Shown here one piece after another: positions 21,401 to 59,527 of a stretch of 64,000 nucleotides of DNA. How positions within the stretch are numbered: the stretch's first letter is position 1; the number at the start of each line of letters is the position of its first letter. Location: the IMG/VR virus record IMGVR_UViG_2744054709_000002, positions 1 through 64,000 of that record; one strand, given 5' to 3'. The position numbers and the translations under genes were made by a program. This DNA is from a virus. Taxonomy: Duplodnaviria > Caudoviricetes. Under the pieces are notes generated by a model. That model saw only the letters and a list, made by a program, of their open reading frames with translations. It was not told the DNA's origin and ran no database searches.

Positions 21401-22608
21401 CCAGGCGCGCGGAAATTCTGGTCGATATTGGAGGTATAGCGTCATGCCAGTGCGATGATGCGCTGGAAAGCCTGTTCAAGGCCGCGACGGAAACGCCAGC
21501 CCGGAACCCCACCATGCTGTGGGATGACGTTCCCAATCCGATCATCCGCAGGCTGGTCGAACTGTTCACCCAGAAATATCAGGCGGTCCTGAAGCAACTG
21601 CAGGACCGCTTTGGCCAGATCCTTACCGGGAAGGGCACAGGCTCGCTCCAGAAGGCGCTATCCCCTGGATGGGGACGGTGGACGCCTGAACAGGAGCAGG
21701 AGGCCCGGGCGCATCTGGAGCGGCATCCTCCCGAAGATTATACCCTTGATGACTGGATGCTGCTGGTCGAGCTGCTGATGCAGGAATACCTGCCGCATGA
21801 CGTGGCGGTGGACTGGGGGGACTGGCTGACGGTACGGGCTACGCTCGCGGGAAAGGCGCAGGCTGCGTTCGAGGCGCGGGGCATCCGGGATGCCGAGAGC
21901 ATCGCGAAAATGGCGGAATACATGCCCACGGGGTTCGGGGCGGTTCCGCGCAAGATCCTCACGCCAGTCGAGATGAAGACCATCGAGATTGCGCGGGCAC
22001 GCGCGGCCGAGAACATCTCCGCCGTCACCGACGTGGCGCGCCACAAGATGAAGAACCTGATCATCCAGCACATGGAAGCGCAGATGTTCGGGATGAAGCA
22101 GGGTCAGTTCACCGCACTGCGGCAGAGCCTTTTTGATGCGTTCGGGGAACTGAACCGAGATTTCCGGCGCATTGCAGTGACCGAGGCGGGGGAGGCCTGC
22201 AACCAGGGCCTGATCGCCACCCTCTCGCCCGGGCAGCGGGTCAAGCGCGTGGAAGCTTATCGCGGCGCGTGCGCGTTCTGCAAATCGATCAACGGGAAAA
22301 TCTTTACCGTCGTTGCGCCCGACGCGCCGGAGCAGAATGGCCAGACGCAGGTCTGGGTCGGGAAAACCAATATCGGGCGCTCTGCCGCTTCGCGGCGTCG
22401 CACTGACGAAGGGCTGATGCCCCGCAGCGAAAACGAGATGTGGTGGCCAGCCGCCGGCGTCCAGCACCCGAACTGCCGGGGCAGCTGGGTCACGGTTACG
22501 GATCCGGGACCTGATGTTTCCCCTGAATTCGTCAACTGGATGGACGGAATCCTGCGCAAGCATAGTCTCAAGCCAGTCGGCAGACCAAGCGGGCAGCAAC
22601 CAACGTAG
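21397..22608 (+). CDS. Head morphogenesis protein (MuF/SPP1 gp7-like)
   Basis: RRIAVTE, CxxC...NG and HPNCR motifs; position after the portal. Confidence 0.85.
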   Translation: MTRRAEILVDIGGIASCQCDDALESLFKAATETPARNPTMLWDDVPNPIIRRLVELFTQKYQAVLKQLQDRFGQILTGKGTGSLQKALSPGWGRWTPEQEQEARAHLERHPPEDYTLDDWMLLVELLMQEYLPHDVAVDWGDWLTVRATLAGKAQAAFEARGIRDAESIAKMAEYMPTGFGAVPRKILTPVEMKTIEIARARAAENISAVTDVARHKMKNLIIQHMEAQMFGMKQGQFTALRQSLFDAFGELNRDFRRIAVTEAGEACNQGLIATLSPGQRVKRVEAYRGACAFCKSINGKIFTVVAPDAPEQNGQTQVWVGKTNIGRSAASRRRTDEGLMPRSENEMWWPAAGVQHPNCRGSWVTVTDPGPDVSPEFVNWMDGILRKHSLKPVGRPSGQQPT

Positions 22609-22613
22609 CCAGA

Positions 22614-22631
22614 TTGCATGCATGCATGCAA
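22614..22631. repeat. Palindromic (TGCA)n array
   Basis: TTGCATGCATGCATGCAA; 22608-22631 is identical to 59504-59527. Confidence 0.9.
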
Positions 22632-22643
22632 AACACGCGTCTG

Positions 22644-22658
22644 TCGTGACGGCATGAT
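22644..22658 (+). promoter_or_regulatory. Late-promoter box (TCGTGAcggCATGAT)
   Basis: Conserved motif. Confidence 0.7.
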
Positions 22659-22685
22659 GGGACATCATCATGCAGCGGAGCGATT

Positions 22686-23045
22686 ATGCGCGGTTTTCTG
22701 ACTTTCCTTGCGGTTCTGGCCTGCCCTGTGCTTGCCCTGGCGGCGAGCGTGGGGCCGTCCAGTCCCATGATGCCCGAGGCTCCGGCGATCATGGCCGCAG
22801 CCACGTGGCAGGAGATTTTCCCGGCTGGCACCCAAAATCATGGCGGCGTGTTCCAGAACACCTCTGCGGCGGTGGAGTATATCTGTCTGACGGGATGCGC
22901 GGGGGGCGATCTTGGTTCCACAGCGATTGCCGTCTATCCGGCATCGGCGACGAACCCCGGCATATTCCGGTGGGGGCCAGTCAGCGGCCCCATTACGGTC
23001 TATGGCGCGAAAGCAGGCCAGACCTACAGCGCGTTTGGAGGCTGA
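22686..23045 (+). CDS. Signal-peptide-bearing hypothetical protein
   Basis: GGAG RBS; MRGFLTFLAVLACPVLALA signal-like N-terminus; beta-rich body. Confidence 0.7.
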   Translation: MRGFLTFLAVLACPVLALAASVGPSSPMMPEAPAIMAAATWQEIFPAGTQNHGGVFQNTSAAVEYICLTGCAGGDLGSTAIAVYPASATNPGIFRWGPVSGPITVYGAKAGQTYSAFGG

Positions 23046-23090
23046 CATGCATGCTTGCAAGCAAATCGGCAAGCGCCGAGGCATTCTGCC

Positions 23091-23642
23091 ATGCTGATCC
23101 TCCTCAAAGCCATGCCGCAGCATCCCCTGTCATGCTTCCATGAACCCACGGAGGGGCAGAAGCGGGCCGGAAATTATCGTAAGACAAAAACCGATTTCGG
23201 AGGCTTGCCGATCACCATCGAGAACGAGGCCGGAAGTGTCCGGCGCGGTCGCGATCATGGCGGTAAGGAATGGGCCACCACCATGACGTGCCATTACGGA
23301 TATATCCGGGGCACCGTGGGGGCGGACGGCGACCATTATGACGTGTTCATCGGCCCGGACGAAAAGTCACGGCGTGTCTGGATCATCCAGACCATGGCGC
23401 CGCCTGATTTTCGCAAGAAGGACGAGGAAAAGGCGATGCTCGGCTTTGGCAGCGAAAGCGAGGCCCGGGCCAGCTTCCTGCGTCATTACGACAATCCTGC
23501 CTTCCTGGGGGCAATCCGCGAGATGCCGTTCGACATCTTCAAGCGACAGGTCATGGCGACCAAGGAGAACGGAGGAAAACTGCGGGGTCCGAAACCGGTG
23601 AGAAAATGCTTTATCGTGCTTGGGCGTGAGAGCCCGGCATGA
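23091..23642 (+). CDS. Inorganic pyrophosphatase-like domain protein (phage polyvalent-protein type)
   Basis: GNY.K, ITIEN..GS.R.G, HYGYIRGTVGADGDHYDVFIG and DEEK.MLGF motifs. Confidence 0.85.
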   Translation: MLILLKAMPQHPLSCFHEPTEGQKRAGNYRKTKTDFGGLPITIENEAGSVRRGRDHGGKEWATTMTCHYGYIRGTVGADGDHYDVFIGPDEKSRRVWIIQTMAPPDFRKKDEEKAMLGFGSESEARASFLRHYDNPAFLGAIREMPFDIFKRQVMATKENGGKLRGPKPVRKCFIVLGRESPA

Positions 23643-23834
23643 TTGCGCCGCGTCATAGAATGTGGCGCGCACTGATCTGGCTGCTGGTCCGCGAGGAACG
23701 CGCACGGACACGGGCATGGGCCGCGATCATAGAGGCGTCCCGTCGCCAGCGGCGCCCGGGTCGTAAAAAATAGGGGGCTGGCAGGCTGTCTGGTATGTTG
23801 ACCAGACCGGCGACGACCACTACCTATTACGATC

Positions 23835-23852
23835 ATCGTGGTATCACGGACC
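23835..23852 (+). promoter_or_regulatory. Orphan iteron upstream of the Panacea TA operon
   Basis: ATCGTGGTATCACGGACC matches the 13990 iteron at 16 of 18 nt. Confidence 0.65.
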
Positions 23853-23889: not shown

Positions 23890-24333
23890 ATGCTGAGCGC
23901 GAGGCAGGTCGCTGATTATTTTCTGACGTTGGCGGATCCAGACGTTGGGGATGAGATTTCCAATCTGAAGCTCCAGAAGCTCTGCTATTACGCGCAGGGG
24001 TTCAGCCTGGCTTTGAACGACACGCCCCTGTTTATGGAGCCGATTGTCGCTTGGCAGCATGGCCCCGTGGTGGAATCAATTTACCATGCGTTCAAGATAT
24101 ATGGGTCACAAGGGATTCCATGTCCTGTGGGGCTGGATTTCTCGGTATATGACGAGGATGACCGGGAACTGCTGAACGAAGTCTATGACGAGTATGGGCA
24201 GTTTTCCGCGTGGAAACTGCGCAATATGACGCATGAGGAAGCGCCGTGGCGCAACGCTGACAAGAGCGGTGCAAATAACGTGATCTCCCAGTCAGCTATG
24301 AAAAAATTCTTCAAGAGGCGGCTGAAGGACTAG
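23890..24333 (+). CDS. Panacea (DUF4065/SocA/GepA-like) antitoxin
   Basis: ISNLKLQKLCYYAQ, LF.E.I.AW.HGPVV and L..MTH.E.PW motifs. Confidence 0.93.
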   Translation: MLSARQVADYFLTLADPDVGDEISNLKLQKLCYYAQGFSLALNDTPLFMEPIVAWQHGPVVESIYHAFKIYGSQGIPCPVGLDFSVYDEDDRELLNEVYDEYGQFSAWKLRNMTHEEAPWRNADKSGANNVISQSAMKKFFKRRLKD

Positions 24334-24337
24334 CGTC

Positions 24338-24766
24338 CTGTCGGCCAAGAAAAACAAAAAGCGTATCGCCAGTGCCCCAGCGCGGACATCGGGAAGAATT
24401 GCTGCGCCGCAGTCATCAAGCGGCAGTACTGATCACCTGAAGCCCCATTTCAGTCTGGAAAACCTGCAGCCATCGCATGATATCGAATGCTGCGAGGAGA
24501 ATGAGCGGGCAAGGTTCGCTGTGGCAATCGCCAAACGCTCCAAATTAACGTGGAACGAACTGCGCGCATCCGGTCGTCACGGACTTGGATACGAGAAGAT
24601 CGGCCGATCATCCATGAAGGTGGCTATTCCGCCATTCATCACTGAAGAAACGCCAATAATCGCTTTTCGATGTGCGGGGATGGCGCCGATGGTCGGTTAT
24701 CGGGGCGGCCGGGTTTTCTATGTCGTCTGGATTGACCGCGCGTTTGATGTGTACGATCATGGATAA
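24338..24766 (+). CDS. Putative cognate toxin (PanT-type, RNase-like), probable CTG start
   Basis: Frame open from 24326; AAGGA 8 nt before CTG; LTW, GYEKI, FR....MVGYR....FYVVWID....VYDH. Confidence 0.75.
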   Translation: MSAKKNKKRIASAPARTSGRIAAPQSSSGSTDHLKPHFSLENLQPSHDIECCEENERARFAVAIAKRSKLTWNELRASGRHGLGYEKIGRSSMKVAIPPFITEETPIIAFRCAGMAPMVGYRGGRVFYVVWIDRAFDVYDHG

Positions 24767-24799
24767 TTCGGAAACAATAATGACATATGGTGATATCTA

Positions 24800-25051
24800 A
24801 TGACAGAAGTTCCCGTTTGTAAAAAACGCGTTGAAGACGCCTGCATTGCAGCACTCCAAAACAGTGATGCTGATTTGTTAGTTATTTTTAATAGACTGCA
24901 AAAAATTTCAGGAATCGAAGAAATAGGACCCAAAAGAAAGGAAATAGAAATTTTATTGTTAAAAGCGCAATTATGTGAAGGAAATATAATGAATATTTCA
25001 GATCACGATTTTCGTCTCATTGCGAGTGAATTGGAAAAGGAAAAAAATTAA
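24800..25051 (+). CDS. AT-rich hypothetical protein (moron)
   Basis: 83-aa ORF spanning a low-GC island. Confidence 0.55.
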   Translation: MTEVPVCKKRVEDACIAALQNSDADLLVIFNRLQKISGIEEIGPKRKEIEILLLKAQLCEGNIMNISDHDFRLIASELEKEKN

Positions 25052-25097
25052 TTCTATAAGAGTAGGACGCGCCGGACAGTTGGACAGGAGCGCCCGA

Positions 25098-25793
25098 ATG
25101 GATGTCTGGGTCGGAAAATCGAACATCGGTCGCGCGCCCGAAAAGGCGCTGACACGTGCCGAGATGAAAACCATCGAAATGGCCGAGGTCTTCGGCATGC
25201 GTAGCGTGGAGGACGTGTCCGGTGCGGACAGGGCGCAGATGAAGGCGCTCCTGGTGGAGCACGTCAAGGCGGATGCCTTCGGGATGAAGCAGGGCACGCA
25301 TCGGGCATTGGCGTCCGCCCTGTTCGCGGAGTTCGCGGTCCTGAATCTGGATTTCGAGGAAATCGCTGCGACGGAAATGGGAGAGGCGCGCAATCAGGGC
25401 ATGATCGCGGCGCAGGAGCCGGGAGCACATGTACGATGGCGTGACGCCTGCGACGGCTGTCCCAGCTGCACGGCGCTCAATGGCAAGACATTCAGGGTCG
25501 TCGCGCCGGATAGCCCGGACAGGAATGCCCGGACGGATGTCTGGGTAGGGAAATCTAATATCGGTTGCGTGCCCGGCCCGGGATATGGTCCAGACGATGA
25601 AGGATACGATCAGGCGTGGGCGCAGCCGCACTGGTTCCCGGCCGCAGGGCTGCAGCATGTGGGGTGCCGGGGCAACTGGTCAGCGATCCCCAAAGCCGAC
25701 CCGCGCGTATCGCCGGAGTTCGTGGAATGGATGGATGAGATCCTGCGCAAGCATCATCTGAAGCCGACAAGCCCGCGCAAGATTGAGGAATAA
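25098..25793 (+). CDS. Truncated paralogue of the MuF-like head protein
   Basis: Shares EMKTIE, FGMKQG, VWVGK.NIG, PAAG.QH..CRG.W and VSPEFV.WMD.ILRKH with 21397-22608; AGGAG RBS before ATG 25098. Confidence 0.75.
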   Translation: MDVWVGKSNIGRAPEKALTRAEMKTIEMAEVFGMRSVEDVSGADRAQMKALLVEHVKADAFGMKQGTHRALASALFAEFAVLNLDFEEIAATEMGEARNQGMIAAQEPGAHVRWRDACDGCPSCTALNGKTFRVVAPDSPDRNARTDVWVGKSNIGCVPGPGYGPDDEGYDQAWAQPHWFPAAGLQHVGCRGNWSAIPKADPRVSPEFVEWMDEILRKHHLKPTSPRKIEE

Positions 25794-25825
25794 TCTGGCT
25801 GCCTCAGTTCCAATACCGCCTGAGA

Positions 25826-26353
25826 TCAGGCAGCGATGGCCTGGGGAACCGTATCCCACTCGTCCAGTTGTGTGACCTCAGCGGGTAGGGCGCGCCGGAC
25901 CATCCGGATCCGTGGAGCGGTCTGGCTGGCACGTGGCTTGAGCGGGGAAAGCGATGTCACGGTTTTCGGGTCCACGCTGAAATGCGGGAAACGGTCACGT
26001 AGCGTGGTCACCACCACCATGCGCAGCTGCTTGTCAGCCCACTGGCCGACTTCCTGCTTGCCATTCTCCCAACGGGAATAGGTGGCCGGGTTCATCATCA
26101 GGATCTTTGCCATATCCCCCGAAGACAGGTCCAGCACGTCGCGCAGGAACCGGATCTCCAGCGGCAGAAGGCCGGTCGGGATCAGGACACGCGCCATCGC
26201 CACGGCGGCCGCAAGCCCTTCCATGTCGGGCACGGAAACTCCGATCACTTCCCCGGTGGTTTCGTCAATTTCCTCTTCCGCGGCGTCAATCAGCGTCACC
26301 GCGTAAGGCAGCCCCAGGCCGTCTTCCTCGTACGAGGGCAGTGTTCTGAACAT
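25826..26353 (-). CDS. HTH antitoxin (MqsA/HigA-like)
   Basis: EIRFLR..L.LS...MA........YSRWENGK HTH; lies downstream of the toxin gene. Confidence 0.82.
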   Translation of the reverse strand: MFRTLPSYEEDGLGLPYAVTLIDAAEEEIDETTGEVIGVSVPDMEGLAAAVAMARVLIPTGLLPLEIRFLRDVLDLSSGDMAKILMMNPATYSRWENGKQEVGQWADKQLRMVVVTTLRDRFPHFSVDPKTVTSLSPLKPRASQTAPRIRMVRRALPAEVTQLDEWDTVPQAIAA

Positions 26354-26365
26354 GAATTCTTCCTT

Positions 26366-26665
26366 TCAGCGGAGCGCCATGACCGTGATGATACGAATGA
26401 TACAGACGTCATCTTTCAAAGTGACAACCACGCCTATCCGGCGACCGTCATTGTCGGTCCCGACCACGCGCCAGGTTTCATCACCGTCCAGTGGTGCTTC
26501 GATTTGATCAATGTTGCCGCGACGGAGCACGCGCTCAGCAATCAGCTTGGAGATATGGCGTTCCCGTGAACGCTGTGTCGCATGGTGCGTCCATACGATC
26601 CTTGCCCCTTGCGTGATAGCGTTCTGCAATCTGCGACGTTCTGCATCGTGCGGCACCGTTATCAA
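26366..26665 (-). CDS. DUF4258-like RNase toxin
   Basis: WT.HA..R..ER.I, WRVVG.D.DGR.I.VVV and IITV motifs. Confidence 0.82.
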   Translation of the reverse strand: MITVPHDAERRRLQNAITQGARIVWTHHATQRSRERHISKLIAERVLRRGNIDQIEAPLDGDETWRVVGTDNDGRRIGVVVTLKDDVCIIRIITVMALR

Positions 26666-26691
26666 GTCCTCGTCGTGAAAATAGGTATTTT

Positions 26692-26706
26692 TTGACGTAC
26701 CGTCAA
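26692..26706. promoter_or_regulatory. Palindrome TTGACG-tac-CGTCAA (TA operator overlapping a -35 hexamer)
   Basis: Inverted repeat about 27 nt upstream of the toxin start. Confidence 0.55.
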
Positions 26707-26761
26707 GTGGGGTAGCTTCACTCGTGAGTGTCCGCCTGTACGCATCCCCGTTCGTCGGTAT

Positions 26762-27982
26762 TCAGTGTGAACTGCAATTCGAAGAAGGCGCAGACTGTAT
26801 GGCACCGCTTAGAATTGCGCGCGCAACGTCACCACAGTCACTTGGTTCGCGATCAAGGTAAGCATATGCACCCTGAGAGGCACAGGCAGTGCACATGCCG
26901 GCGTCAATGAGTTTCTCGATTGCATCATTGGCGCGAATTTCTGTCTTGTGCTGTTCTGGATGGTCGAAATATAGGCTGAAACCCAGATCGTCAGGGTACA
27001 CCTTGGGAGCATGCACGACGTGGCAGTTCTGTAACTGGATGGTCCCCGCCGGGAACACGATGCCCCCATGTTGTCCATATGCTATCGGAGAGCCGTCTGG
27101 AGTAGCTTCAAGCAGGTTCAGATGATCTGCTTTCATGCCGACTTTGTAATAGTCATTGTTTTCAATAGGCTTTGTGATGGTTCCAATACAGCCATTGTCT
27201 GTTTCAGACGGGTCATCTTTCTCGTCGCTTATGAGAAAATAAGGCGAGAACGTATAAAAAAATTTATCGGACATAATAATATTATTCTTCACGGCATAAT
27301 ATACCATGTCTGTTGCTGCCTGTGATAATCCATTTCCGATTAGTGGCATAAAAACTTTCTTATTTGGCCCGACAGTAATGTATGAACTGTTTTTTATGGA
27401 TTTTGCGAACTTATAAGCATCGTCACCAAACAGTGTTTTTTCGTATAATGATGATACTATATTAGACTCTGTTGTAAAATTAGACCTTTTCAGGACGATG
27501 CTGTCATTTCCGATCTGAAGTATATGTGTTGGGTCTGAGGTCCCATTTATAAGAAGATTTATATATATTCCATGCAGGCCCTCAGAAAGAATATAGAGAT
27601 TGATTGGCCCAAAATGACCATGTAAAGCAAGGTCATGGGATTGAGACATCATCATGACATCCCAAAATCCCGTGCTTTCTATTACTCGGTCACCTTCAAA
27701 ATTTGTCTCGTTTATTGGGACTTTCATATAATACGGGACATAATTATTGAAGTGCATTTTGGCTTCAGGAAGGGGCCGAGGAATTCCTGGAACTGCAGCG
27801 CTGGAATGTCCCGATGCGGGTTCCTCGTGGGATGCGCGTATGTTGACGGCACCTGCACGTGCAGTCGTATGTTGCGCGGTCATATGTGTAGATAGAGCCG
27901 TCCACGACACATATGTCAGACCGCCTCCTGCTATGAGGCTGGCAGTGATGATTGCTGCGAATCTCATGGGGGACAACTGCAT
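26762..27982 (-). CDS. Membrane-anchored or exported hypothetical protein (low-GC moron)
   Basis: 406 aa; N-terminal hydrophobic helix; AT-rich core. Confidence 0.75.
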   Translation of the reverse strand: MQLSPMRFAAIITASLIAGGGLTYVSWTALSTHMTAQHTTARAGAVNIRASHEEPASGHSSAAVPGIPRPLPEAKMHFNNYVPYYMKVPINETNFEGDRVIESTGFWDVMMMSQSHDLALHGHFGPINLYILSEGLHGIYINLLINGTSDPTHILQIGNDSIVLKRSNFTTESNIVSSLYEKTLFGDDAYKFAKSIKNSSYITVGPNKKVFMPLIGNGLSQAATDMVYYAVKNNIIMSDKFFYTFSPYFLISDEKDDPSETDNGCIGTITKPIENNDYYKVGMKADHLNLLEATPDGSPIAYGQHGGIVFPAGTIQLQNCHVVHAPKVYPDDLGFSLYFDHPEQHKTEIRANDAIEKLIDAGMCTACASQGAYAYLDREPSDCGDVARAILSGAIQSAPSSNCSSH

Positions 27983-28124
27983 GGAGTTCAGCCGATCATC
28001 TGCAAGAGATACCGTGCATCAATCCTACCATCCATCGCCATGATCCATGTTCCCTACTGTTCTGATCTTCCGATATCACAGAACATTTCGGGAGCGCGTT
28101 AACAGGACGGCATGACAGGGATGC

Positions 28125-28325
28125 TTATGCTGGATGCAGCTTTGCTGCTTCAAGCCCTAACTGGAGCAGGCGACGAAGTGCTTCTGATCGCGTGATGTTC
28201 ATTTCTTTTGCGTAAGCATGAACGGCCTGCACCAGTTCAGCAGGGACTCTTCCCGAGATAAGGGGGTTGGTTCCCGTTGCTGGGCGTCCTCTTCTTTTTA
28301 CGTGCACGGTAATTGACGGCTTCAT
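28125..28325 (-). CDS. Ribbon-helix-helix regulator
   Basis: KRRGRPATG...ISGRV......V..YA.....TRSEALRRLL. Confidence 0.85.
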   Translation of the reverse strand: MKPSITVHVKRRGRPATGTNPLISGRVPAELVQAVHAYAKEMNITRSEALRRLLQLGLEAAKLHPA

Positions 28326-28408
28326 ATTTTATGTCTACGTAAAAAAACAGGCCGAAGCAAGGTTGCCCCCTTGCCCCGGCCCTAACCAACAGCAAGGGAA
28401 AGTACCCC

Positions 28409-31165: not shown

Positions 31166-31180
31166 TCGTGACGATATCCT
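31166..31180 (+). promoter_or_regulatory. Late-promoter box (TCGTGAcgaTATCCT), 21 nt before the helicase ATG
   Basis: Motif plus fixed spacing; no Shine-Dalgarno sequence. Confidence 0.75.
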
Positions 31181-35739: not shown

Positions 35740-35761
35740 TTGCTTGCAAGCTTGCAAGCAA
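35740..35761. repeat. Palindrome TTGCTTGCAAGCTTGCAAGCAA (variant of the TGCA array)
   Basis: Perfect 22-bp palindrome; related copy at 23046-23064. Confidence 0.8.
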
Positions 35762-35783: not shown

Positions 35784-36065
35784 ATGACAGAGCGCAATAA
35801 CCCCACCCAGGCCGCAACCGAAATCAGCGGAATGCTGGGGAGCCTTGGGGAAAGGCAGGCACGGATCCGGGCGGCTGACCAGGCCATTCTTTCGGCGGCG
35901 CAGAACCAGCTTGTGGTCGTGGAGCGTAGGATCGAATCAGCCCGGATGGCATCCCTACTGAGCGATGAAGGCCGCGACAGGTTTCTGGATCTGATTCGTG
36001 AGAGAGGCAAACTGCTGCTGGTCATCGCGGACGCCCAGGCCGCGCTGGAGGCCGCTGGCACCTGA
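35784..36065 (+). CDS. Small helical hypothetical protein
   Basis: AAAGG RBS; 93 aa. Confidence 0.65.
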   Translation: MTERNNPTQAATEISGMLGSLGERQARIRAADQAILSAAQNQLVVVERRIESARMASLLSDEGRDRFLDLIRERGKLLLVIADAQAALEAAGT

Positions 36066-36161: not shown

Positions 36162-36200
36162 GGCACCCAGGCACCCAGGCACCCAGGCACCCAGGCACCC
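36162..36200 (+). repeat. Tandem 8-mer (GGCACCCA) x about 5
   Basis: Read directly from the sequence. Confidence 0.95.
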
Positions 36201-36228: not shown

Positions 36229-36254
36229 TTGCATGCATGCATGCATGCATGCAA
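36229..36254. repeat. Palindromic (TGCA)6 array
   Basis: Read directly from the sequence. Confidence 0.9.
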
Positions 36255-36334: not shown

Positions 36335-36349
36335 TCGTGACGGCAGCCT
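36335..36349 (+). promoter_or_regulatory. Late-promoter box (TCGTGAcggCAGCCT), 21 nt before the protease ATG
   Basis: Motif plus fixed spacing. Confidence 0.75.
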
Positions 36350-42438: not shown

Positions 42439-42460
42439 GATTGCATGCATGCATGCAATC
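42439..42460. repeat. Palindromic (TGCA)n array
   Basis: GATTGCATGCATGCATGCAATC, a perfect 22-bp palindrome. Confidence 0.9.
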
Positions 42461-42507: not shown

Positions 42508-42522
42508 TCGTGACGGCATCAT
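42508..42522 (+). promoter_or_regulatory. Late-promoter box (TCGTGAcggCATCAT), 21 nt before the ATG of the tail operon
   Basis: Motif plus fixed spacing; no Shine-Dalgarno sequence. Confidence 0.75.
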
Positions 42523-50893: not shown

Positions 50894-51588
50894 TCCGGTT
50901 CGGGCAGGTTGTTGCCGTCTACCCTGAAATCGGCCGGGTTGACCTGGTTGATCTGGATTCCGGGATACCTGTGGGCAATGCCATCGTGCTGTCGGCCGAC
51001 GGGTCAACCGACGGGGGGTCATGGTCGATCCCTGACGTTCCGCGGCCGCCAGCCGGCAGGGTTGGCGGTATCAACCCAGACGGTCGCACCATGATCGCAG
51101 CGTACGAATTCGGGGCGGGGGCGCGGGCGGTCGTGCATGGGTTTGCACGGTTTGCAGGCAGCCAGATTGTTTTCAAACAGCAGGACCGTACCATCACGCG
51201 CCATGCCGCAAGCGGGGCCTACACCACCATCGCGCCCGACGGGTCGATCGAGGCATGGCATCCATCGGGTACGTACTTCAGGATCGGAACGGGAGGGCAC
51301 GAGGACCTCACGGCTCTATGCGCTGCGAAATGGGTCACCCCGGCTGAAGCCCCGGAGCCAACTGTTACGCTGGCGACGCCGAATTTCTCGTTTGTCGTAG
51401 CGCCGGGCGGAAACGTCACCACCAAATATACGTCGTGGAAAATGACCGGACCGGTCGAGCTAGACGGCCCTCTGACGGTGAAAGACAGCATTACGGCCAG
51501 CGGAGACGTCACGGCGAATGGCGTCAGTCTGGACGACCATACGCACACCGAGAGCACAGGCGGGACAACCAGCAAGCCAACGGGATAG
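50890..51588 (+). CDS. Baseplate spike (gpV-like)
   Basis: GDV.ANGVSL..HTH C-terminal HxH motif. Confidence 0.88.
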   Translation: MIRFGQVVAVYPEIGRVDLVDLDSGIPVGNAIVLSADGSTDGGSWSIPDVPRPPAGRVGGINPDGRTMIAAYEFGAGARAVVHGFARFAGSQIVFKQQDRTITRHAASGAYTTIAPDGSIEAWHPSGTYFRIGTGGHEDLTALCAAKWVTPAEAPEPTVTLATPNFSFVVAPGGNVTTKYTSWKMTGPVELDGPLTVKDSITASGDVTANGVSLDDHTHTESTGGTTSKPTG

Positions 51589-51589
51589 A

Positions 51590-51619
51590 TTGCATGCGAA
51601 ATTGCATGCTTGCATGCAA
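51590..51619. repeat. Degenerate (TGCA)n array
   Basis: TTGCATGCGAAATTGCATGCTTGCATGCAA. Confidence 0.8.
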
Positions 51620-51659: not shown

Positions 51660-51674
51660 TCGTGACGGCAGCAT
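51660..51674 (+). promoter_or_regulatory. Late-promoter box (TCGTGAcggCAGCAT), 21 nt before the ATG of the baseplate operon
   Basis: Motif plus fixed spacing. Confidence 0.75.
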
Positions 51675-51680: not shown

Positions 51681-52835
51681 ATGGCAGCACCTCCGTCACA
51701 GAGATATCGGCAGATTTCATTCCTGCTGACAGGCGGATCGGGCGCGGACGTGCAATTCACGTTTGCCCTGCGGCCGGAGGAACTGAGCGTTACCGACCCC
51801 ACGCGCCTGACCACCAACCAGACCCTTGGCGGCGCGTGGACTGACGTGTTCGGCCGTGGCATCCGCACCATCACGCTGACAGGGAATAACGGCTGGCGGG
51901 GCGGCCTGCTGCAAAGTGGGGAGGACATGTTCCTGTCCCTACGGCAGGCCGTATATGACGGCTGGCACCAACGGCGTCGCCTGCTGCTGGCATCCGGTCA
52001 GGATCCATCCGCGGTAGAACTGATTTTTACGGACAATCTCGACGGTATCCACGACGTGGTGGTGCCGCGCACGTTCTCGCTGCACAGGAGCCGCTCGCGC
52101 CCCCTGCTGATGCAGTACAGCATCCAGTTGGACGTGCTGCGCGACGCGACCACCGCGCTGTCGCTGTCGGACGAGATCACGGATGCCCTGTCCAATCCCC
52201 TGCGCTGGCTGCTGGCTCAGACAGGACTGGGCAACGTCGTGACGATGTTGGGGCAGTTCCAGGACTATCTGACGCAGGGCCTGAACATACTGGGGGCAGC
52301 GCGCGGCGTGCTCGCGCAGTTGGTGGATACCGCCATCCAGTTGTTTCAGGGTGTGGCGGATATCGCGGGCGAGACGGAGGGCATTTTCACAGGGCAGAAT
52401 TCCCTGTTGCTGGAATTCTCGACGCAATATGCGCTTGCAGCGACCAGCGGTCTTGAAGCGCTCGGTGCCGACAGCACGCTGCCGATGGATGACCGGATCG
52501 CGCTGATGCAGGCGGCGTCCACGTTTGCGGACGGTGCATGCACGATGGCCAACGGGTTCAACGTCAATCAGACCATTCCGCTGATCACGCCCCTGTTCGG
52601 AGCATCGATGTGTTCCTCCACCGGCGGAGGGGACGCTGCAAGCCAGTTCATGCTGGACAACACGTCGCCATTTGAATCGATGCTTGACCCGGGCACCTCA
52701 ATCTTGACCGTCTCATCAGGGGCCCAGGCGGCTATCTCAGGGCTGCGCCTCGACCCGCTTCTCCTGATCGGCCATTCCGATGACGTGATCTCCAATTTTG
52801 ATGCAATGGGCAACGGTGTGCAGGTGGCAGCATGA
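51681..52835 (+). CDS. Baseplate / tail-tube initiator protein
   Basis: F...PEE......R....QT.GG.W.D.FG.G...I.L.G..G and RS.SRPLL..Y motifs. Confidence 0.7.
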   Translation: MAAPPSQRYRQISFLLTGGSGADVQFTFALRPEELSVTDPTRLTTNQTLGGAWTDVFGRGIRTITLTGNNGWRGGLLQSGEDMFLSLRQAVYDGWHQRRRLLLASGQDPSAVELIFTDNLDGIHDVVVPRTFSLHRSRSRPLLMQYSIQLDVLRDATTALSLSDEITDALSNPLRWLLAQTGLGNVVTMLGQFQDYLTQGLNILGAARGVLAQLVDTAIQLFQGVADIAGETEGIFTGQNSLLLEFSTQYALAATSGLEALGADSTLPMDDRIALMQAASTFADGACTMANGFNVNQTIPLITPLFGASMCSSTGGGDAASQFMLDNTSPFESMLDPGTSILTVSSGAQAAISGLRLDPLLLIGHSDDVISNFDAMGNGVQVAA

Positions 52836-53485
52836 CGACAGACACCTCTACGCCACAGTGGACGGGTCCGCTCAGTGGCACGCGCAAGGCCCGGACCCTG
52901 ATTGGCGATACGCCCGAACGCATCGCCCTGCGTGAAACCGGGGATGCCGCAAACTGGTACACGCTGATCTGGCTCAATGGCCTCCGCGCGCCCTATATCA
53001 CCGACAACCCGGCGCACAGGTCCGACACCGTCCTTCTGGCAGGGCAGGATGAGATCGTGGTTCCGGCCACGGGTACGACGCCAACCGGCGTGGCGGACAG
53101 CAGTGACCTGTTCGGAACCGATATTGCCCTGACCGGTGGCGTCGTTACCACTGGGGAGAACGGAGATCTGGCGACCGTGTCAGGGGTCAGTAACCTGGTG
53201 CAGGCAGTTGACAACCGCATGGCCAGCCAGCCGGGTGATCTCGTCTACGAGCCGTCCTACGGGAACGGGGTCTACGCGCTGCTCGGACGGTCAACCGATC
53301 CCATCAATGCCGACCTGGCAGGTGTGTTTGTCGGACGCTGCATCTCGGCCGATCCCCGCATTGATTCGATCACGTCGATCACGGTCGGGGTGAACGGAGG
53401 CAGTCTGGACGTGGATGGGCAATACATGACGATCGGAGGCAAGTCGGTTCCGGTCGGCGGCGTACTGACCGGAGGGGGGAACTGA
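52832..53485 (+). CDS. Baseplate wedge protein (LysM-like plus gp25-like)
   Basis: GDT...IA....GDA..W..L...NGL; G..NL.QA..R.....G.L...P.YG; DPRI. Confidence 0.8.
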   Translation: MTTDTSTPQWTGPLSGTRKARTLIGDTPERIALRETGDAANWYTLIWLNGLRAPYITDNPAHRSDTVLLAGQDEIVVPATGTTPTGVADSSDLFGTDIALTGGVVTTGENGDLATVSGVSNLVQAVDNRMASQPGDLVYEPSYGNGVYALLGRSTDPINADLAGVFVGRCISADPRIDSITSITVGVNGGSLDVDGQYMTIGGKSVPVGGVLTGGGN

Positions 53486-54600
53486 TGGCATTCCAGATCA
53501 AATCGCGGCTTTCGATCCTCGCCTCCATGATCAACCGCGCCCGCATGGTATGCTCGCTGACAGATTATAACGTCGGCGGCGTCATGCGGACGTTTCTGGA
53601 TGCCGTCGCGCAGGAGATTGATCGCCTCTATCAGGATCTGGTCCTGGCCCTGAAGGATGCCATCCAGACCTCGACCTATACGACCTTTGATTTTCCCGCC
53701 CTTGCGGCCGTGGCGGCGTCCGGTACATTGACCGTGACGATCAGCGTGCAGTCCAGCGATACGGTAATCCCGGCCGGGAGCGTCTTCACGCCGGCGGAGG
53801 GGACGTTGACCTATGCCAGCGTGGCGGCCGTGACGATTCCGGCCGGCCTGACCACGGGGATCGTCCAGGTCGCGTGCACCACGACGGGGACCGCCGGGAA
53901 TGTGGCGGCAGGCACGACATTTTCCATGGGGGCACCGGTCGCGGGGTTCGTGTCTGCGGTCAACGGCACCCTTTTCTCCAATGGCGCGCCGGCAGAGACG
54001 GCGCAGGCGCGACAGGCGCGGTTCGCGCGTTTCATCCTTGGGTTGGCCCGCAGCACGACGGCGGGCGTGACAACGGGACTGTCCACCGTCCAGTTGACGG
54101 ATTCAAACGGGAATGTCACGGAGGCAGCCAAATTCCAGTACGTGTATGAGCCGTATCTGACCGATCCGACGCAGCCGACCGCGAAGATCTACGGGTATAT
54201 CCACAATGGCGTCGGGAGCACATCAACGGCGCTGGTGGCAGAGGCGCAATCGACGATAGACGGCTATTACGAGACTGATGGCACACCCGTACCGGGCTAC
54301 GTGGCGGCGGGCGTAACGTTTATCGCCCAGGCTGCGCCAGAGATGCTCGTCGCCGTAGCCGGGAGCATTACCGCTGAAACCGGATATACGGTCGCGGATC
54401 TGGACGCATTGGTGCAGGCCGCACATCAGGCATACATTCTGGCGTTGCCGCTAGGAGCCACGGTTGAAGTCGCAAAACTCGATGCGCTGGCCATGGGAAT
54501 AGATGGCGTCCAGAATTTCGTGCGTACCGCGCCGGCGGCGGATGTCGTGGCAACTACGGCGTGGACAAAGCCGATGCCCGGCACGGGCACCTATACATGA
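53485..54600 (+). CDS. Baseplate J-like protein
   Basis: TDYNVG.V.RT..DAVA.E, C...G..GNV.AG and NG...ET....AR motifs. Confidence 0.88.
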   Translation: MAFQIKSRLSILASMINRARMVCSLTDYNVGGVMRTFLDAVAQEIDRLYQDLVLALKDAIQTSTYTTFDFPALAAVAASGTLTVTISVQSSDTVIPAGSVFTPAEGTLTYASVAAVTIPAGLTTGIVQVACTTTGTAGNVAAGTTFSMGAPVAGFVSAVNGTLFSNGAPAETAQARQARFARFILGLARSTTAGVTTGLSTVQLTDSNGNVTEAAKFQYVYEPYLTDPTQPTAKIYGYIHNGVGSTSTALVAEAQSTIDGYYETDGTPVPGYVAAGVTFIAQAAPEMLVAVAGSITAETGYTVADLDALVQAAHQAYILALPLGATVEVAKLDALAMGIDGVQNFVRTAPAADVVATTAWTKPMPGTGTYT

Positions 54601-55682
54601 GCATCCTGAAACGACTGCTCGGTCGTCTGACCCGGGCATATGACGTTTCCCCACGCGGGCGGCAGGCCCTGTCATTTGGCGCCATGCTGGATTTTGGCTG
54701 GGAACTGGCGGATGATGCGCTGGTGCTGTCTCCCTCCGGCCGTGGAACCGTGACGATCACATTGACCGATCTGACGGTAATGGGCCTTGCCATGGCGATC
54801 AGCGCGGTGCCCGGTTTTTTTGTCCTGAATGACATCGGGGCAAATGTTTCCGCCATGAGCGCGCTGCGTTGCATTGTCGGAACCGGCAGCGTGACGGGCA
54901 GCGCCGGATACCGGTTTTCGGATACCGCATATCCTGGAGGAAATGACTGCCTCGGTGGGGCGCTCTGGGTTGACGCCTCGTACCCCCTCCAGACACTGAC
55001 AGTGTTCACCAGCGACAACTGGGGACTGCTGGACGGCCCGAGGGCGGAACTGCAGGCTGCTCGCGATCTGATCAGGATTGCTCCGAACCAGATGGCCATT
55101 CCGTCAGCCGAGGACGATTGGCTGAATTATCTGGGTGCGATCTACGGGAATATTGCGCGCAACACTGATGAGCCAGACGTGACCTACGGGGCGCGCATCA
55201 TTTCCACCATTTTACGCCCGGCGTGCAACAACAAGGCGCTTGAACTGGCGATAGAGGCTTACTCCGGGCAGTCGGCGCGTGTCACCAATTCTGCCCAGGC
55301 ACCGGCGACGTCCGTGGTTTATGGCGGGACTTTCCGTTTCGACGGAAGCCAGACGTACGATAATCCGGCAACAACGCCGATTTATGGATTGTTCGATATT
55401 GCTGCCAATTACGATACGGCCGCATCCGGCGTGTCCCCTACTGATTTCCGGGCGGCCATCATCTGGATTGCGAACAGCCTGAGGGCAGCGGGGACGTACC
55501 TGCGGAACACGGTTATCGACAATGCAGATCCGGCCCTGACCGATGCCGACCCGGTCACGTCGGACAGTGCATTCGCACTGACGGAGGCATGGAACACGAC
55601 CTATGACGGCGTGCGCAAATACGACGGTAGCGCGGCGTTCCGGGGAGAAGCGGTCGTCAGCGATCTGGAGGATGGAAACTGA
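54597..55682 (+). CDS. Baseplate wedge / tail protein (gpI-like)
   Basis: A...WL..LG.IYG...R...E.D..Y..RI motif. Confidence 0.75.
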   Translation: MSILKRLLGRLTRAYDVSPRGRQALSFGAMLDFGWELADDALVLSPSGRGTVTITLTDLTVMGLAMAISAVPGFFVLNDIGANVSAMSALRCIVGTGSVTGSAGYRFSDTAYPGGNDCLGGALWVDASYPLQTLTVFTSDNWGLLDGPRAELQAARDLIRIAPNQMAIPSAEDDWLNYLGAIYGNIARNTDEPDVTYGARIISTILRPACNNKALELAIEAYSGQSARVTNSAQAPATSVVYGGTFRFDGSQTYDNPATTPIYGLFDIAANYDTAASGVSPTDFRAAIIWIANSLRAAGTYLRNTVIDNADPALTDADPVTSDSAFALTEAWNTTYDGVRKYDGSAAFRGEAVVSDLEDGN

Positions 55683-55683
55683 T

Positions 55684-56434: not shown

Positions 56435-57571
56435 ATGTCGGGAACTACAAGCACTACGTCATCCACGACATCTTCATCGCTCCCGCCGACCGGTTTTACC
56501 TCGCTGACCGAAACTGCCGATTTTGAGGCGGGGATCTACCAGATTGCGACTGATGACCCGGTGCTGGGGGGGCCGGGGGGGCTTGCAAATTATCAGGCGC
56601 AGGGGTTGGCCAACCGAACGAAGTATCTGTTGCAGCAGACGACTGCGCTCCAGGCATCGCTCGCATCACTGTCGTCTGGATACTCGTCTCTCCAGAGTGC
56701 GCTGTCGGCGGAAACGACACGGGCGGAAGCCGCAGAGTCCACGCTCTCGGGCAGTATCTCCGCCGAAACCACCCGTGCCGAAGGAGCGGAATCCTCCCTC
56801 CAGAGTGCTCTGTCGGCGGAAACGACGCGGGCGGAAGCCGCAGAGTCCACGCTGTCGAGCGGTATCTCCGCCGAAACCACCCGTGCCGAAGCAGCGGAAT
56901 CTGCTCTTGCATCAAACATTACCATCATCATCAACACGTTCTATCCGATCACCGCATCTACGACCGTGCTCGTTCCCGCCGGGGTGACAAAAGTTTACCT
57001 GCGTGGCAAGGGGGCAGGCGCAGGCGCAACGGGATGTGCGGCGACGTCGAACACCCAGACTTATTCTGGCGCGGGCGGCGGCGGCGGCGGAGAAATGGAG
57101 GGCATCTACGCTGTCACTCCCGGCGATAAACTGACATTCACGATCGGTGCCGGAGGGGCCGGAAACATTGGCCCAGGCTCAGGATATACCGGGGGCGTAA
57201 CATCGTGCGTGAATGGCGCGGGGGAACGCCTGCAATCCCTCCCTAGCGCCAGTCCCGGGACAAAATCCAGTACGACGAACACTGCGGGTGGTGCCGGGGC
57301 AGGTCAGGGTACGTCAGACGTGTCCGGCACATTCCGCAACGATGCGGGAAACGACGGCCAGGATGGACAGGCCGGGACCGCGCAGCTGTCTGGTGCTGGC
57401 GGTCTGGGACCTGGAGGCCTCGGCGGTGCGCGATCCGGCCTGCAGGGCGGCCAAAATGGCTCTGCTCCCGGAGCAGGTGGCGGCGGGGCCTACGATACCG
57501 GTTTTACCGGGAACAATTATCCTGGTGGCAACGGAGCGCCGGGGGAATTTCTTTACAAATGGCTGCCCTGA
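56435..57571 (+). CDS. Tail fibre protein with coiled-coil repeats and Gly-rich tip
   Basis: IYQI...DPV.GG..G.AN.QA..LANRT.YL N-terminus; four ETTRAE repeats; Gly-rich C-terminus. Confidence 0.88.
   Translation: MSGTTSTTSSTTSSSLPPTGFTSLTETADFEAGIYQIATDDPVLGGPGGLANYQAQGLANRTKYLLQQTTALQASLASLSSGYSSLQSALSAETTRAEAAESTLSGSISAETTRAEGAESSLQSALSAETTRAEAAESTLSSGISAETTRAEAAESALASNITIIINTFYPITASTTVLVPAGVTKVYLRGKGAGAGATGCAATSNTQTYSGAGGGGGGEMEGIYAVTPGDKLTFTIGAGGAGNIGPGSGYTGGVTSCVNGAGERLQSLPSASPGTKSSTTNTAGGAGAGQGTSDVSGTFRNDAGNDGQDGQAGTAQLSGAGGLGPGGLGGARSGLQGGQNGSAPGAGGGGAYDTGFTGNNYPGGNGAPGEFLYKWLP
56690..56901 (+). repeat. 108-bp tandem duplication (four 18-aa repeats) in the tail fibre
   Basis: Near-identical units start at 56690 and 56798. 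Confidence 0.9.
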
Positions 57572-57583
57572 TGGAGCGTTGAA

Positions 57584-57781
57584 ATGGCAACAGTTGAAAC
57601 GTACGCCGTATATCTGACCACGGCAACCGGCACCAACTCTGTTGGATACGTGGTTGATAATGTCCTGTGGGATGGCGCGTCCGCATGGACGCCTCCGGAA
57701 GGGACCGCCGTCGTCGCCGATCCCGATCGCAAATACCCGATCGGCAGCACTTATGATCCCGCGACAAGCACGACGACGTGA
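57584..57781 (+). CDS. Small tail-fibre assembly-like protein
   Basis: YAV....V.N...WDG...W.PP.G and IG.TYD motifs. Confidence 0.75.
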   Translation: MATVETYAVYLTTATGTNSVGYVVDNVLWDGASAWTPPEGTAVVADPDRKYPIGSTYDPATSTTT

Positions 57782-58212
57782 GCGGGTGTCCCATAATGGC
57801 TGACGACGACGATCTGGCCGAGGTCGTGGGAAGGCATTCCCACGAAATCAATGATAACCGCAGAAACATTTCAGAACTGCGGGAGGACTTCCGGCAGATT
57901 GAACTGCGCGTGGAACGCAGTCAGGAGGAGCAGAGGCGCACGTTTGCAGATTTTGCGGGCGAGATGCGCGGCCGCTGGGACGAGGCCAGAAAATACGATA
58001 CTGAAGCCGCGCGCGCGCGGGATGAAAAGATCGGCAAAGTCGCCACCCAGACGGATCAGATCCTCGGGGGGCTGTTGCTGATCAAATGGGCGCTCGCTGC
58101 GCTGGCTGTGCCATTTCTGCTCGGAGCGCTGACATTGCTGATTGAAATTGTCGGAGCACTTCTCGGCTGGGGGGAGTTCGGCACCTGGGTTTGGCACAAA
58201 GCGTTTGGTTGA
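57778..58212 (+). CDS. Coiled-coil protein with C-terminal membrane segments (holin-like)
   Basis: Charged coiled coil followed by a long hydrophobic stretch. Confidence 0.65.
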   Translation: MSGCPIMADDDDLAEVVGRHSHEINDNRRNISELREDFRQIELRVERSQEEQRRTFADFAGEMRGRWDEARKYDTEAARARDEKIGKVATQTDQILGGLLLIKWALAALAVPFLLGALTLLIEIVGALLGWGEFGTWVWHKAFG

Positions 58213-58484
58213 CCGGCGCTTGTGATCTGCACCAGCGCATCGAATGATGCCTGATCCTGCAGAACAATCACCGGTCCACTCTCCCGACACTCGTGCATGA
58301 GGCGCTGTCGTTGTATCTGCACGGACCGTTTGAGGTGGCCCCGGGTAATATGCGCCTGGCGCGCCCAGCTGATACGCCACACGCGACCGTCGGCATGGAG
58401 TGTATCAACGTGGAACGCATCATCGCTGCCCTTTTTTCCCGAGATCACAGGACCGATCCCGATCACCCGCGGACGCATGCCGTG

Positions 58485-58799
58485 TTACTGCCGGTCGGAG
58501 GGGACGCCGCGCTTGGTCAATTCCTTGTGCACGTAGGCCTCCACCGCCGCAATCACGAACGTTTGCTTGTACTGCCGGGCATGCAGCCGCCGTCCTGCTG
58601 ATTTACTCAGGAGCCACTCCATCTGCAGCATCAGTTTTTCCGGCACACGCGTGCTCATGCTGACCAGCAGGTCAGAACGCACGTCCTGATGCTCCCATGG
58701 ATAAATTTCCTTGTTGGGAGCGCCGCCAATAAATGCCTCTGCCTCGGCAGAGGAGGGCTGCGTAGAGGGAAGGGAGGGGAGTTTTTTCGGGATGCTCAT
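58485..58799 (-). CDS. Small ParA partner (probable RHH centromere-binding protein)
   Basis: Coupled to parA; AEAFIGGA...PW N-terminal arm followed by a strand-helix-helix pattern. Confidence 0.75.
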   Translation of the reverse strand: MSIPKKLPSLPSTQPSSAEAEAFIGGAPNKEIYPWEHQDVRSDLLVSMSTRVPEKLMLQMEWLLSKSAGRRLHARQYKQTFVIAAVEAYVHKELTKRGVPSDRQ

Positions 58800-59467
58800 T
58801 GTGAAATAGCCTCATAGACAGCACGCATTTCGTTCGCCGCTTTTGCGTCCAGCTCGCGCCCCTTCAATTCACATACACCGACCCCTTCTCCGGTTGCGCG
58901 GCCATACGCCGCGCGCGCGACCAGGGTGGTAAACGGGTGGGTGGCCAGCGTGGGCGTTTCCTGCAACATCCATTCGCGCAGTTCGGCGGGTGCGCGTTCC
59001 GCAGATTGGTGCAGGATCCGGTTGACGACAATGCGCGCCTGGAGTTTGGGATTCAGTTGCTGTGCCCGGTCATATATATTGGCGATCGTCGGGAGCGCCC
59101 AGACGTCCAGCGCGTCTGGTTGCACTGGTACGACCAAGGTATCGGCAACCATTGCACATGCCCGGAGGGCAGGTGAATCCACAGCCCCCGTATCAACAAT
59201 CAGGGTCTGGTACCGTGTCGCCAGATCTTCAATCACGGGACCGATCGTGCGGCCGTCGGACCGCTCGACGCAACTGATGCGGGGATAGTCCGGATGCCCT
59301 TCCAGACGATGCGACGCCCACAATGCGCTCGATTTCTGGCCTGGGTCCGCGTCTACCAGCAGGGTGTCGATACCATTCAGCGCCGACAGGACGGCCAGGT
59401 TCGTGGCAATCGTGGTTTTGCCCGACCCGCCTTTTTCGTTTCCGACCACGATGATTCGAGCCGTCAT
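58796..59467 (-). CDS. parA: ParA-family (type Ib/ParF-like) partition ATPase
   Basis: KGGSGKTT deviant Walker A, LVDADP, IVDT and VPVQP..LD motifs; GGAGG RBS. Confidence 0.93.
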   Translation of the reverse strand: MTARIIVVGNEKGGSGKTTIATNLAVLSALNGIDTLLVDADPGQKSSALWASHRLEGHPDYPRISCVERSDGRTIGPVIEDLATRYQTLIVDTGAVDSPALRACAMVADTLVVPVQPDALDVWALPTIANIYDRAQQLNPKLQARIVVNRILHQSAERAPAELREWMLQETPTLATHPFTTLVARAAYGRATGEGVGVCELKGRELDAKAANEMRAVYEAISQ

Positions 59468-59509
59468 TCCGCCCTCCGAGCAACAATCTATGCCAGCACA
59501 TCTGCCAGA

Positions 59510-59527
59510 TTGCATGCATGCATGCAA
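59510..59527. repeat. Palindromic (TGCA)n array in the parA promoter region (candidate centromere/operator)
   Basis: TTGCATGCATGCATGCAA 43 nt upstream of the parA start. Confidence 0.85.

Follow-up and report, generated by a model that had tools for sequence, protein, structure and literature searches.

Tandem arrays of 4-bp boxes dispersed among virion genes are candidate binding sites for a probable ribbon-helix-helix partner of ParA in a likely phage-plasmid

Introduction

The linear phage-plasmid N15 has a type Ia partition system, in which the large helix-turn-helix protein SopB recognizes 16-bp inverted repeats. Ravin and colleagues are said to have found in 2008 that the centromeres of N15 are dispersed and that its partition system influences late gene expression. 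Here, we analyzed IMG/VR record IMGVR_UViG_2744054709_000002 (Caudoviricetes), a myovirus-like, temperate element with plasmid-type partition genes (parA and a gene for a 104-aa partner) that is likely a phage-plasmid. It contains seven short arrays of tandem 4-bp boxes, one upstream of parA and six among virion and late genes, and we propose that the partner binds them. The window under analysis is the first 64 kb of the 75,718-bp single-contig record. The capsid gene is 100% identical to that on a 75,702-bp contig of the acetic acid bacterium Novacetimonas hansenii JCM 7643; in this host assembly, the element is a contig of its own, apart from the others. The host genus is used in bacterial cellulose production and, to our knowledge, its resident phage-plasmids have been little studied.

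ParG of plasmid TP228 recognizes tetramer boxes, ACTC, that recur with an 8-bp period (PMC3130281). Protein ω of pSM19035 binds contiguous heptads, which overlap three promoters and have centromere function (PMC3074150); on this account, one ribbon-helix-helix (RHH) protein can serve several separate promoter-overlapping centromeres. Cluster A mycobacteriophages carry stoperators, many sites in short intergenic gaps across the virion genes, at which the bound protein stops prophage transcription (PMC9283540).

Results and Discussion

Seven arrays are confined to the element

The arrays consist of period-4 GCWW units, at least four in a row. When generalized as GCWWGCWWGCWWGC, the pattern matches exactly seven sites in the entire 75,718-bp genome, the same seven that the initial annotation had placed by inspection of the window; the 64-75.7-kb part of the record, covered by this whole-genome search, contains no array. 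The array 12-mer is matched 10 times versus 0.01 times expected by chance, and 10 matches were reached in 0 of 100 shuffles. Six arrays are spread across 22.6-51.6 kb among virion and late genes, and one is at par.

Array 1 (22614-22631) is an 18-bp palindrome, TT(GCAT)3GCAA, with a (TGCA)4 core at 22615-22630. It begins 6 nt past the stop of the gene at 21397-22608, and a late box at 22644 lies 12 nt beyond its end. The same TT(GCAT)3GCAA makes up array 7 (59510-59527; core (TGCA)4 at 59511-59526). The 24-nt identity of 22608-22631 and 59504-59527 pointed out in the initial annotation is there in the sequence and comprises GCCAGA plus the array. Array 5 (42439-42460) is GAT(TGCA)4ATC, a perfect 22-bp palindrome with its (TGCA)4 core at 42442-42457; a late box at 42508 is 49 nt away, counted from 42458. 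The longest simple array, array 4 (36229-36254), is T(TGCA)6A with the (TGCA)6 core at 36230-36253, and ends 80 nt ahead of the late box at 36335 of the head-protease gene. Every (TGCA)4 and (TGCA)6 core has T...A flanks, which gives TTGCA...TGCAA, and a left flank GA(T/A) is common to the arrays.

The remaining arrays are variants or composites. Array 2 (23047-23064), ATGCATGCTTGCAAGCAA, can be read as ATGCATGC-TTGCAAGC-AA; it lies directly past the stop of a gene for a 119-aa secreted protein and upstream of a gene with an InPase domain (probable ATG at 23091). Array 3 (35740-35761), TTGCTTGCAAGCTTGCAAGCAA, is a perfect 22-bp palindrome made of 2.2 copies of GCTTGCAA, 32 nt past the stop of the helicase-like gene and 22 nt ahead of an ATG at 35784. 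Array 6 (51590-51619) is a composite, TTGCATGC-GAAA-TTGCATGC-TTGCATGC-AA, that starts 2 nt past a stop at 51588 and ends 40 nt ahead of the late box at 51660 of the tail-tube-initiator gene.

Six of the seven arrays are found 0-164 nt past the end of a + strand gene, and array 7 is found between parA and a divergent gene. The longest possible open reading frames (ORFs) of the 23055 gene and of parA would cover arrays 2 and 7. The Pfam match of the 23055 gene begins at residue 34, and parA has an ATG at 59467 preceded by a ribosome-binding site; with the most plausible start codons all arrays are intergenic, as originally described, the status of arrays 2 and 7 depending on the choice of start.

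Elsewhere in the 3.7-Mb host assembly the 12-mer does not occur; the phage contig accounts for all of its 10 matches. The array 18-mer is present in only one of 301 genomes sampled from the host family, and that one is the same host assembly. Because the motif is confined in this way, the arrays belong to the element and are no motif of a host regulon. Nor are they recombination scars of a shared cassette, since their flanks beyond GA(T/A) are dissimilar.

The 290-nt gap before the protease gene also contains a perfect tandem repeat of 8-bp period, 4.9 copies of GGCACCCA at 36162-36200, 29 nt upstream of the (TGCA)6 core; it may be another protein-binding array.

An identical 18-mer (TTGCATGCATGCATGCAA) is found outside the element, in inovirus-like IMG/VR contigs (L023-L037, 3-17.5 kb), where it precedes a G2P-type replication gene (PF05155, PF05144) by ~15 nt. 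On the other side of this 18-mer, at a distance of 75-125 nt, 14 of the 15 contigs have an ORF of 62-74 aa starting with MPAT[IL]RLT. By eye, its product looks RHH-like; it has no match to Pfam or to PDB sequences. Here, an RHH protein may have come to use the same operator independently.

A probable type Ib partition operon with array 7 upstream

parA (58796-59467, minus strand) codes for a 223-aa Walker ATPase (GNEKGGSGKTT) that matches Pfam AAA_31, MipZ, and CbiA (E 1e-12 to 1e-13) and phrog_164, "ParA-like partition protein" (E 2e-32). As in type Ib systems, this ParA is small, has a deviant Walker A motif, and lacks an N-terminal DNA-binding extension. Directly downstream in the same operon is the gene of the ParG-like partner (58485-58799, minus strand; 104 aa), whose start overlaps the parA stop by 4 nt. 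The order of parA followed by the partner gene is kept in all homologous loci for which DNA context is at hand (L052, L054, L056, L057, L059, L060, and L062-L064).

The position of array 7 agrees with the initial annotation: it is 43 nt upstream of parA when measured to the ATG at 59467, and 10 nt to the left of a perfect TATAAT (59538-59543, + strand). Near the par operon it is the sole repeat that contains GC. A consensus scan found weaker promoter-like sites ~190 nt upstream of parA. With the parA ATG 43 nt away and the TATAAT of the other strand 10 nt away, an operator role of array 7 is plausible, and array 7 is most likely the candidate par operator and one centromere, judging from its sequence context. 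The 37% GC stretch between parA and the 59743 gene (59560-59742) includes AAATATG and CGTAAA repeats, three copies of each, and may harbor iterons, promoters, or an additional binding site.

The partner belongs to an unnamed family with a probable Arc-like fold

The 104-aa partner matches no Pfam family and no PHROG, and a word-based protein search recovered the partner itself alone. By profile search of 1.84 billion representatives, 503 relatives were found at E <= 0.001, 205 of them at E <= 1e-10. The family, which has ~500 representative clusters and no Pfam entry, appears from its sequence to be one of Arc-like RHH proteins; it shares the motif YPW-x5-VR-x-D-[strand]-PE, followed by two helices. 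The partner itself has a basic N-terminal tail, the strand LLVSMSTRVPE, and two helices. A monomer fold computed from a 7-sequence alignment was poor (predicted local distance difference test score, pLDDT, 60). When 80 sequences were used, the AF2 model reached a pLDDT of 86.7, with an extended segment at residues 41-53 and helices at 54-67 and 74-96.

In an all-against-all structural scan with VIA-align, 9 of the 10 top chains were RHH DNA binders (Z 4.0-4.7), among them TraM, NikR, the type Ib ParB of pCXC100, several antitoxins, and VirC2. Likewise, 5 of 7 matches of the profile to PDB sequences were RHH/CopG proteins (E 0.02-0.23). When 80 members of the family were compared with Pfam, RHH families alone were touched, by 5, 3, 3, 2, 1, and 1 members. 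Every single score is weak, and we read the partner, from model and sequence, as a probable Arc-like RHH protein with a basic N-terminal tail. With 104 aa and matches of RHH type only, it differs from the helix-turn-helix SopB/ParB of N15-type Ia systems.

Repeat type varies with the predicted DNA-reading strand in homologous par loci

Homologs with DNA context came from one genome of the host family, three metagenome or viral contigs, two class-level genomes, and three plasmids; a further candidate, L061, was rejected as a false match. Four loci (L054, L059, L060, and L062), which are close relatives of each other, have a partner with the strand LR[VL]QLNAKLPE and GAA(AGCT)nTTC arrays on both sides of the par operon (n = 2-5; 3-6 arrays per locus, within ~400 nt). 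One of them, the Roseomonas plasmid L062, in addition has four to five AGCTTTCT repeats, which are non-palindromic direct repeats with AGCT boxes separated by 4-bp spacers. These arrays cluster at par: (AGCT)3 is confined to the par locus in the 4.5-Mb genome G021, and a 1.9-kb region around par contains all seven occurrences of AGCTAGCT in the 219-kb Roseomonas plasmid.

Other members of the family differ in both strand and repeat. In L052, the strand is VQLNTRV and (CTAG)2 is located ~55 nt upstream of parA. The partners of L057 and L063 (K[VL]YNLRL) go with ATGATAT-type repeats in place of 4-bp arrays. L064, with a strand of the Q-L-N-A-K type, has scattered AGCT boxes only, and the context of L056 is cut. 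The strand of the phage partner, VSMSTRV, is unique among 80 aligned members; a tblastn search of plasmids with its two nearest strand variants (P0031 and P0071) returned only the plasmids already identified, or nothing. We take the DNA-facing positions to be those equivalent to Q9, N11, and R13 of Arc. At these predicted positions, S-x-S-x-R accompanies TGCA, Q-x-N-x-K/R accompanies AGCT or CTAG, and x-x-N-x-R accompanies ATGATAT. The site architecture is common to both types, GAA(AGCT)nTTC in the homologs and GAT(TGCA)nATC in the phage.

The viral contig of L052 encodes the closest ParA (48% identity). In its IMG/VR record (L065, ~41% complete), CTAGCTAGCT recurs between two genes (1501-1510, a short gap), 4 kb from the par operon, which hints that dispersal of arrays is not unique to this phage.

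Four arrays accompany the late boxes

An 11-nt late box, TCGTGACGGCA, occurs four times in the whole genome, each time on the + strand: at 22644-22654, upstream of the 22686 gene; at 36335-36345, where the first T is 21 nt from the protease ATG (36356); and at 42508-42518 and 51660-51670, also 21 nt from the ATG (42529 and 51681, respectively). All four have an array upstream, and the previously noted range of about 12-80 nt proved accurate, the gaps to TCGTGAC being 12, 80, 49, and 40 nt. A subclass of the box, TCGTGACGATA, has three sites (31166, 70648, and 75621), none of them with an array. In a crude binomial model, the seven arrays were dropped at random into ~10 kb of intergenic DNA and scored when they fell within 100 nt upstream of a box. 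The probability of at least four arrays upstream of the four TCGTGACGGCA boxes is 8e-5, with a 100-nt window picked post hoc and a rough gene map; with all nine intergenic TCGTGAC boxes, the same crude model gives P = 1.8e-3.

Distant relatives from other bacterial families also have the TCGTGAC box, which is conserved among them. Of 112 such boxes in 19 loci, 34 are exactly 21 nt before the start of an ORF of at least 60 aa, and any other distance is seen at most 5 times. Positions 10-15 from the box start resemble a -10 hexamer, NAnnnT (CAGCAT or TATCCT, for example), so transcripts may start at the ATG, and the late mRNAs may, by this sequence criterion, be leaderless. Arrays of (TGCA)n with n >= 3 are absent from all 21 non-self loci of the distant relatives (53-64% identity). 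The adjacency of arrays and late boxes does not, therefore, extend to these relatives, which keep the box without the arrays, and the arrays are a lineage-specific addition and no part of the late promoter. In the relatives, 10 of 36 late boxes at the fixed distance are preceded by a hairpin and a T-run, mostly before the protease gene. None of the four late boxes of the phage is; in front of its protease gene (TGCA)6 takes that place.

Promoters at the arrays themselves were sought by eye and rejected, for σ54 because the GG-N10-GC spacing is lacking at every array, and for σ70 because the arrays have no -35/-10 pair in common.

The partner as the likely array-binding protein

We take the partner as the likely binder mainly because strand and repeat covary, because the GA(W)-array-(W)TC architecture is shared, and because the arrays of relatives flank par. 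Comparison thus supports the proposal of the initial annotation that the protein encoded at 58485-58799 binds the arrays, and we estimate the probability that the seven (GCWW)n arrays are the cognate sites of this RHH partner of a type Ib ParA at roughly 0.65. Partner dimers would insert a two-stranded ribbon (S47, S49, and R51) into successive 8-bp registers of an array, so that (TGCA)4 would hold about two dimers and (TGCA)6 three. Array 7, in the divergent promoter region upstream of parA, would then be the par operator and one centromere, and the other six would be extra, dispersed centromere sites, set where the virion-gene region has one of its few intergenic gaps. Alone, each of these small sites is probably too weak, and all of them together may form the partition complex that is moved by ParA. 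The dispersal is the unusual feature, as plasmid relatives cluster their arrays at par.

Several observations weigh against this assignment. All RHH fold scores are below the trust levels of the tools (Z < 5, E > 0.01), and Foldseek found nothing at E <= 0.001, with Arc at rank 5 (E 6.7). Since the four best AGCT-type loci are closely related, the covariation rests on about three independent lineages, and the L064 plasmid holds two AGCTAGCT versus three matches of a control pattern. A lone (TGCA)4 at par is far below the size of known type Ib centromeres; the AT-rich repeat AAATATG, with three copies at 59606-59690, likewise precedes parA and could be either the true site or an additional one. 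The 18-mer recurs in the unrelated inovirus contigs, which have no protein in common with the phage. Finally, the distance from array to box varies between 12 and 80 nt, three arrays have no box, and late-type boxes at 31166 and 56393 have no array.

With four arrays just upstream of late boxes and six following + strand gene ends, a bound protein could hinder read-through or promoter use in the plasmid state. Only array 1, 12 nt from its box, is near enough to occlude a late promoter. A partition protein that sits on the inter-operon arrays as a roadblock or insulator, silences the virion genes in the plasmid state, and replaces the intrinsic terminators of the relatives is a speculative extension of this layout, and we regard it as doubtful. 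If it were true, loss or titration of the partition complex would open late transcription, and the lytic switch would be tied to plasmid inheritance through one small protein.

The positions of the arrays could also reflect a role in RNA, as hairpins at the 3' ends of late operons that serve as terminators, insulators, or stabilizers where the relatives have intrinsic terminators. Their location past gene ends agrees with this, as does the presence of (TGCA)6 where the relatives have a hairpin and T-run; the arrays fold as 7-11-bp hairpins (-7.5 to -17.7 kcal/mol), and terminator-like sites are not in excess in the late region (18 and 7 vs 16.7 and 11.6 in shuffles). However, none of the arrays is followed by a T-run or appears in the list from the terminator scan, as intrinsic terminators would; three of the seven hairpins do not exceed shuffles in stability (z 0.1 to -1.0), nothing ends at array 7 between its divergent genes, and a search of Rfam gave no match. 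The homologous arrays flank the par operon, and the AGCTTTCT direct repeats of one plasmid are non-palindromic. We therefore consider an RNA function quite improbable. An unlikely alternative makes the arrays operators of another DNA-binding protein, such as the CI-like repressor, a late regulator, or a host factor, with a coincidental link to par. That an array accompanies each of the four TCGTGACGGCA boxes, that the CI-like repressor gene (60044-60736) is 0.5 kb from array 7, and that a small regulator-like ORF adjoins the 18-mer in 14 of 15 inovirus contigs would all be compatible with it. Yet the divergent control region of the repressor (60737-60808) has other palindromes and no GCWW array, a host regulon is disfavored because the motif is missing elsewhere in the host genome and in 300 of the 301 family genomes searched, the distant relatives keep the late box with no array at any of 21 non-self loci, and it would be left unexplained why arrays flank the par operons of the homologs. 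The palindromes between the CI-like gene and its divergent neighbor, ATAACAttGTTAT and TGGTTtaATAACCA, are likely the immunity operators.

The initial annotation had also considered a structural role for the arrays as alternating purine-pyrimidine palindromes. More broadly, they might matter as DNA structures or unstable repeats: Z-DNA, cruciforms, slippage tracts, recombination joints, or methylation clusters. (TGCA)n is indeed palindromic and alternates pyrimidine and purine, its copy number varies by site (4, 4, 4, and 6), the element encodes DNA methyltransferase-like proteins, and GCATGC is frequent in the window. The comparison with homologs speaks against such a role, because (AGCT)n is non-alternating and the AGCTTTCT repeats are non-palindromic; the conserved property is a repeated 4-bp box and no DNA structure. 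Moreover, the variants at 23047 and 35740 hold the GCWW period yet disrupt simple slippage units, and copy numbers are identical in both assemblies of the element. We judge this explanation to be highly improbable, and binding of the arrays by the ParA partner is retained as the preferred one.

Relation to described partition and silencing systems

If the partner binds as proposed, the system most likely resembles known dispersed-centromere plasmids and is no new kind of system. Like ParF/ParG-parH of TP228, it pairs a small Walker ParA with a small, probably RHH protein whose N-terminal tail is flexible, and an array of 4-bp boxes with an 8-bp period, here the candidate site, stands upstream of the operon, an arrangement that in TP228 is both operator and centromere (PMC3130281). 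The AGCT boxes with 4-bp spacers of the Roseomonas homolog reproduce the layout of ParG sites. Unlike ParG, the phage partner has no detectable sequence match to the Pfam ParG family; its boxes are palindromic and mostly contiguous, and par carries one small array, with six others dispersed over 37 kb, where TP228 has 20 boxes at par.

The δ/ω system of pSM19035 has an RHH protein, as the phage probably does, and contiguous short repeats at several loci, with promoter overlap and centromere activity shown for the repeats of ω (PMC3074150). The heptads of ω are non-palindromic, 7 bp long, and come in runs of 7-10, and ω controls copy-number, par, and toxin-antitoxin promoters of its plasmid and no phage virion operons. 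In the phage, by contrast, no arrays are near predicted promoter elements except array 1, at 12 nt from its box, and array 7. Stoperators resemble the arrays in being many copies of one candidate protein-binding site in intergenic gaps among virion genes. They are asymmetric and bound by a monomer of the immunity repressor, whereas the candidate binder here is a partition protein; stoperators match the operator of the repressor itself, and the control region at 60737-60808 is without a GCWW array.

The parallel with N15 lies in a phage-plasmid with several putative centromere copies scattered among phage genes. The two differ in that the system described here is of type Ib, has a probable RHH protein and tetranucleotide arrays, and belongs to a circular myovirus-like element of an alphaproteobacterium. 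What is new is the unnamed partner family and, as far as can be told from the DNA and protein letters, a tandem 4-bp-palindrome site type with an apparent residue-to-base code and type Ib sites that seem dispersed among virion operons, beside a conserved late box. The analysis offers a concrete, testable pair of site and protein for the ParA-partner family, and a simple recognition code in which strand residues are matched to the identity of the 4-bp palindrome. If the assignment is true, the phage would be the second, mechanistically distinct case after N15 of a phage-plasmid that scatters centromeres among virion genes, which is relevant to how stable inheritance and lytic development are coordinated in phage-plasmids.

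Other features of the element

The ends of the 75,718-bp record overlap by 68 bp, so the element is circular or terminally redundant. No close kin was found when 20 kb of the phage was compared by megablast with phage and plasmid collections, and capsid-based searches yielded distant relatives alone (53-64% identity). Family searches assigned a replication initiator (13146), large terminase (16420), portal (18518), anti-repressor (28409), tyrosine recombinase (29630), a 1506-aa helicase-like protein (31187), head protease (36356), major capsid protein (37983), tail sheath (43678), tape measure (46521), tail tube initiator (51681), baseplate (52832-55682), and tail fiber (56435-57571), followed by parA, also recognized by family search, with the partner gene (58485-59467, minus strand). 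The CI-like repressor gene (minus strand) matches phrog_4 (E 2e-5), and replication genes, methyltransferases, and a DNA polymerase are found beyond 60.8 kb. The element also encodes a tyrosine recombinase; a plasmid state is likely, short of proven.

The anti-repressor and recombinase genes adjoin a low-GC island (24000-28400), in which GC falls to 50-55% versus ~61%; it contains unannotated ORFs and most of the σ70-like promoter matches of a scan of 20-40 kb, and is probably a moron or accessory region. Within the tail fiber gene, there are two copies of a 108-nt repeat (56690-56901; 94% identical, 54-nt sub-period). GCATGC and CATG occur 59 and 430 times, respectively, in the whole 64-kb window, ~2-3 times the expectation from a rough composition estimate; the arrays account for merely ~12 of the 59 GCATGC sites.

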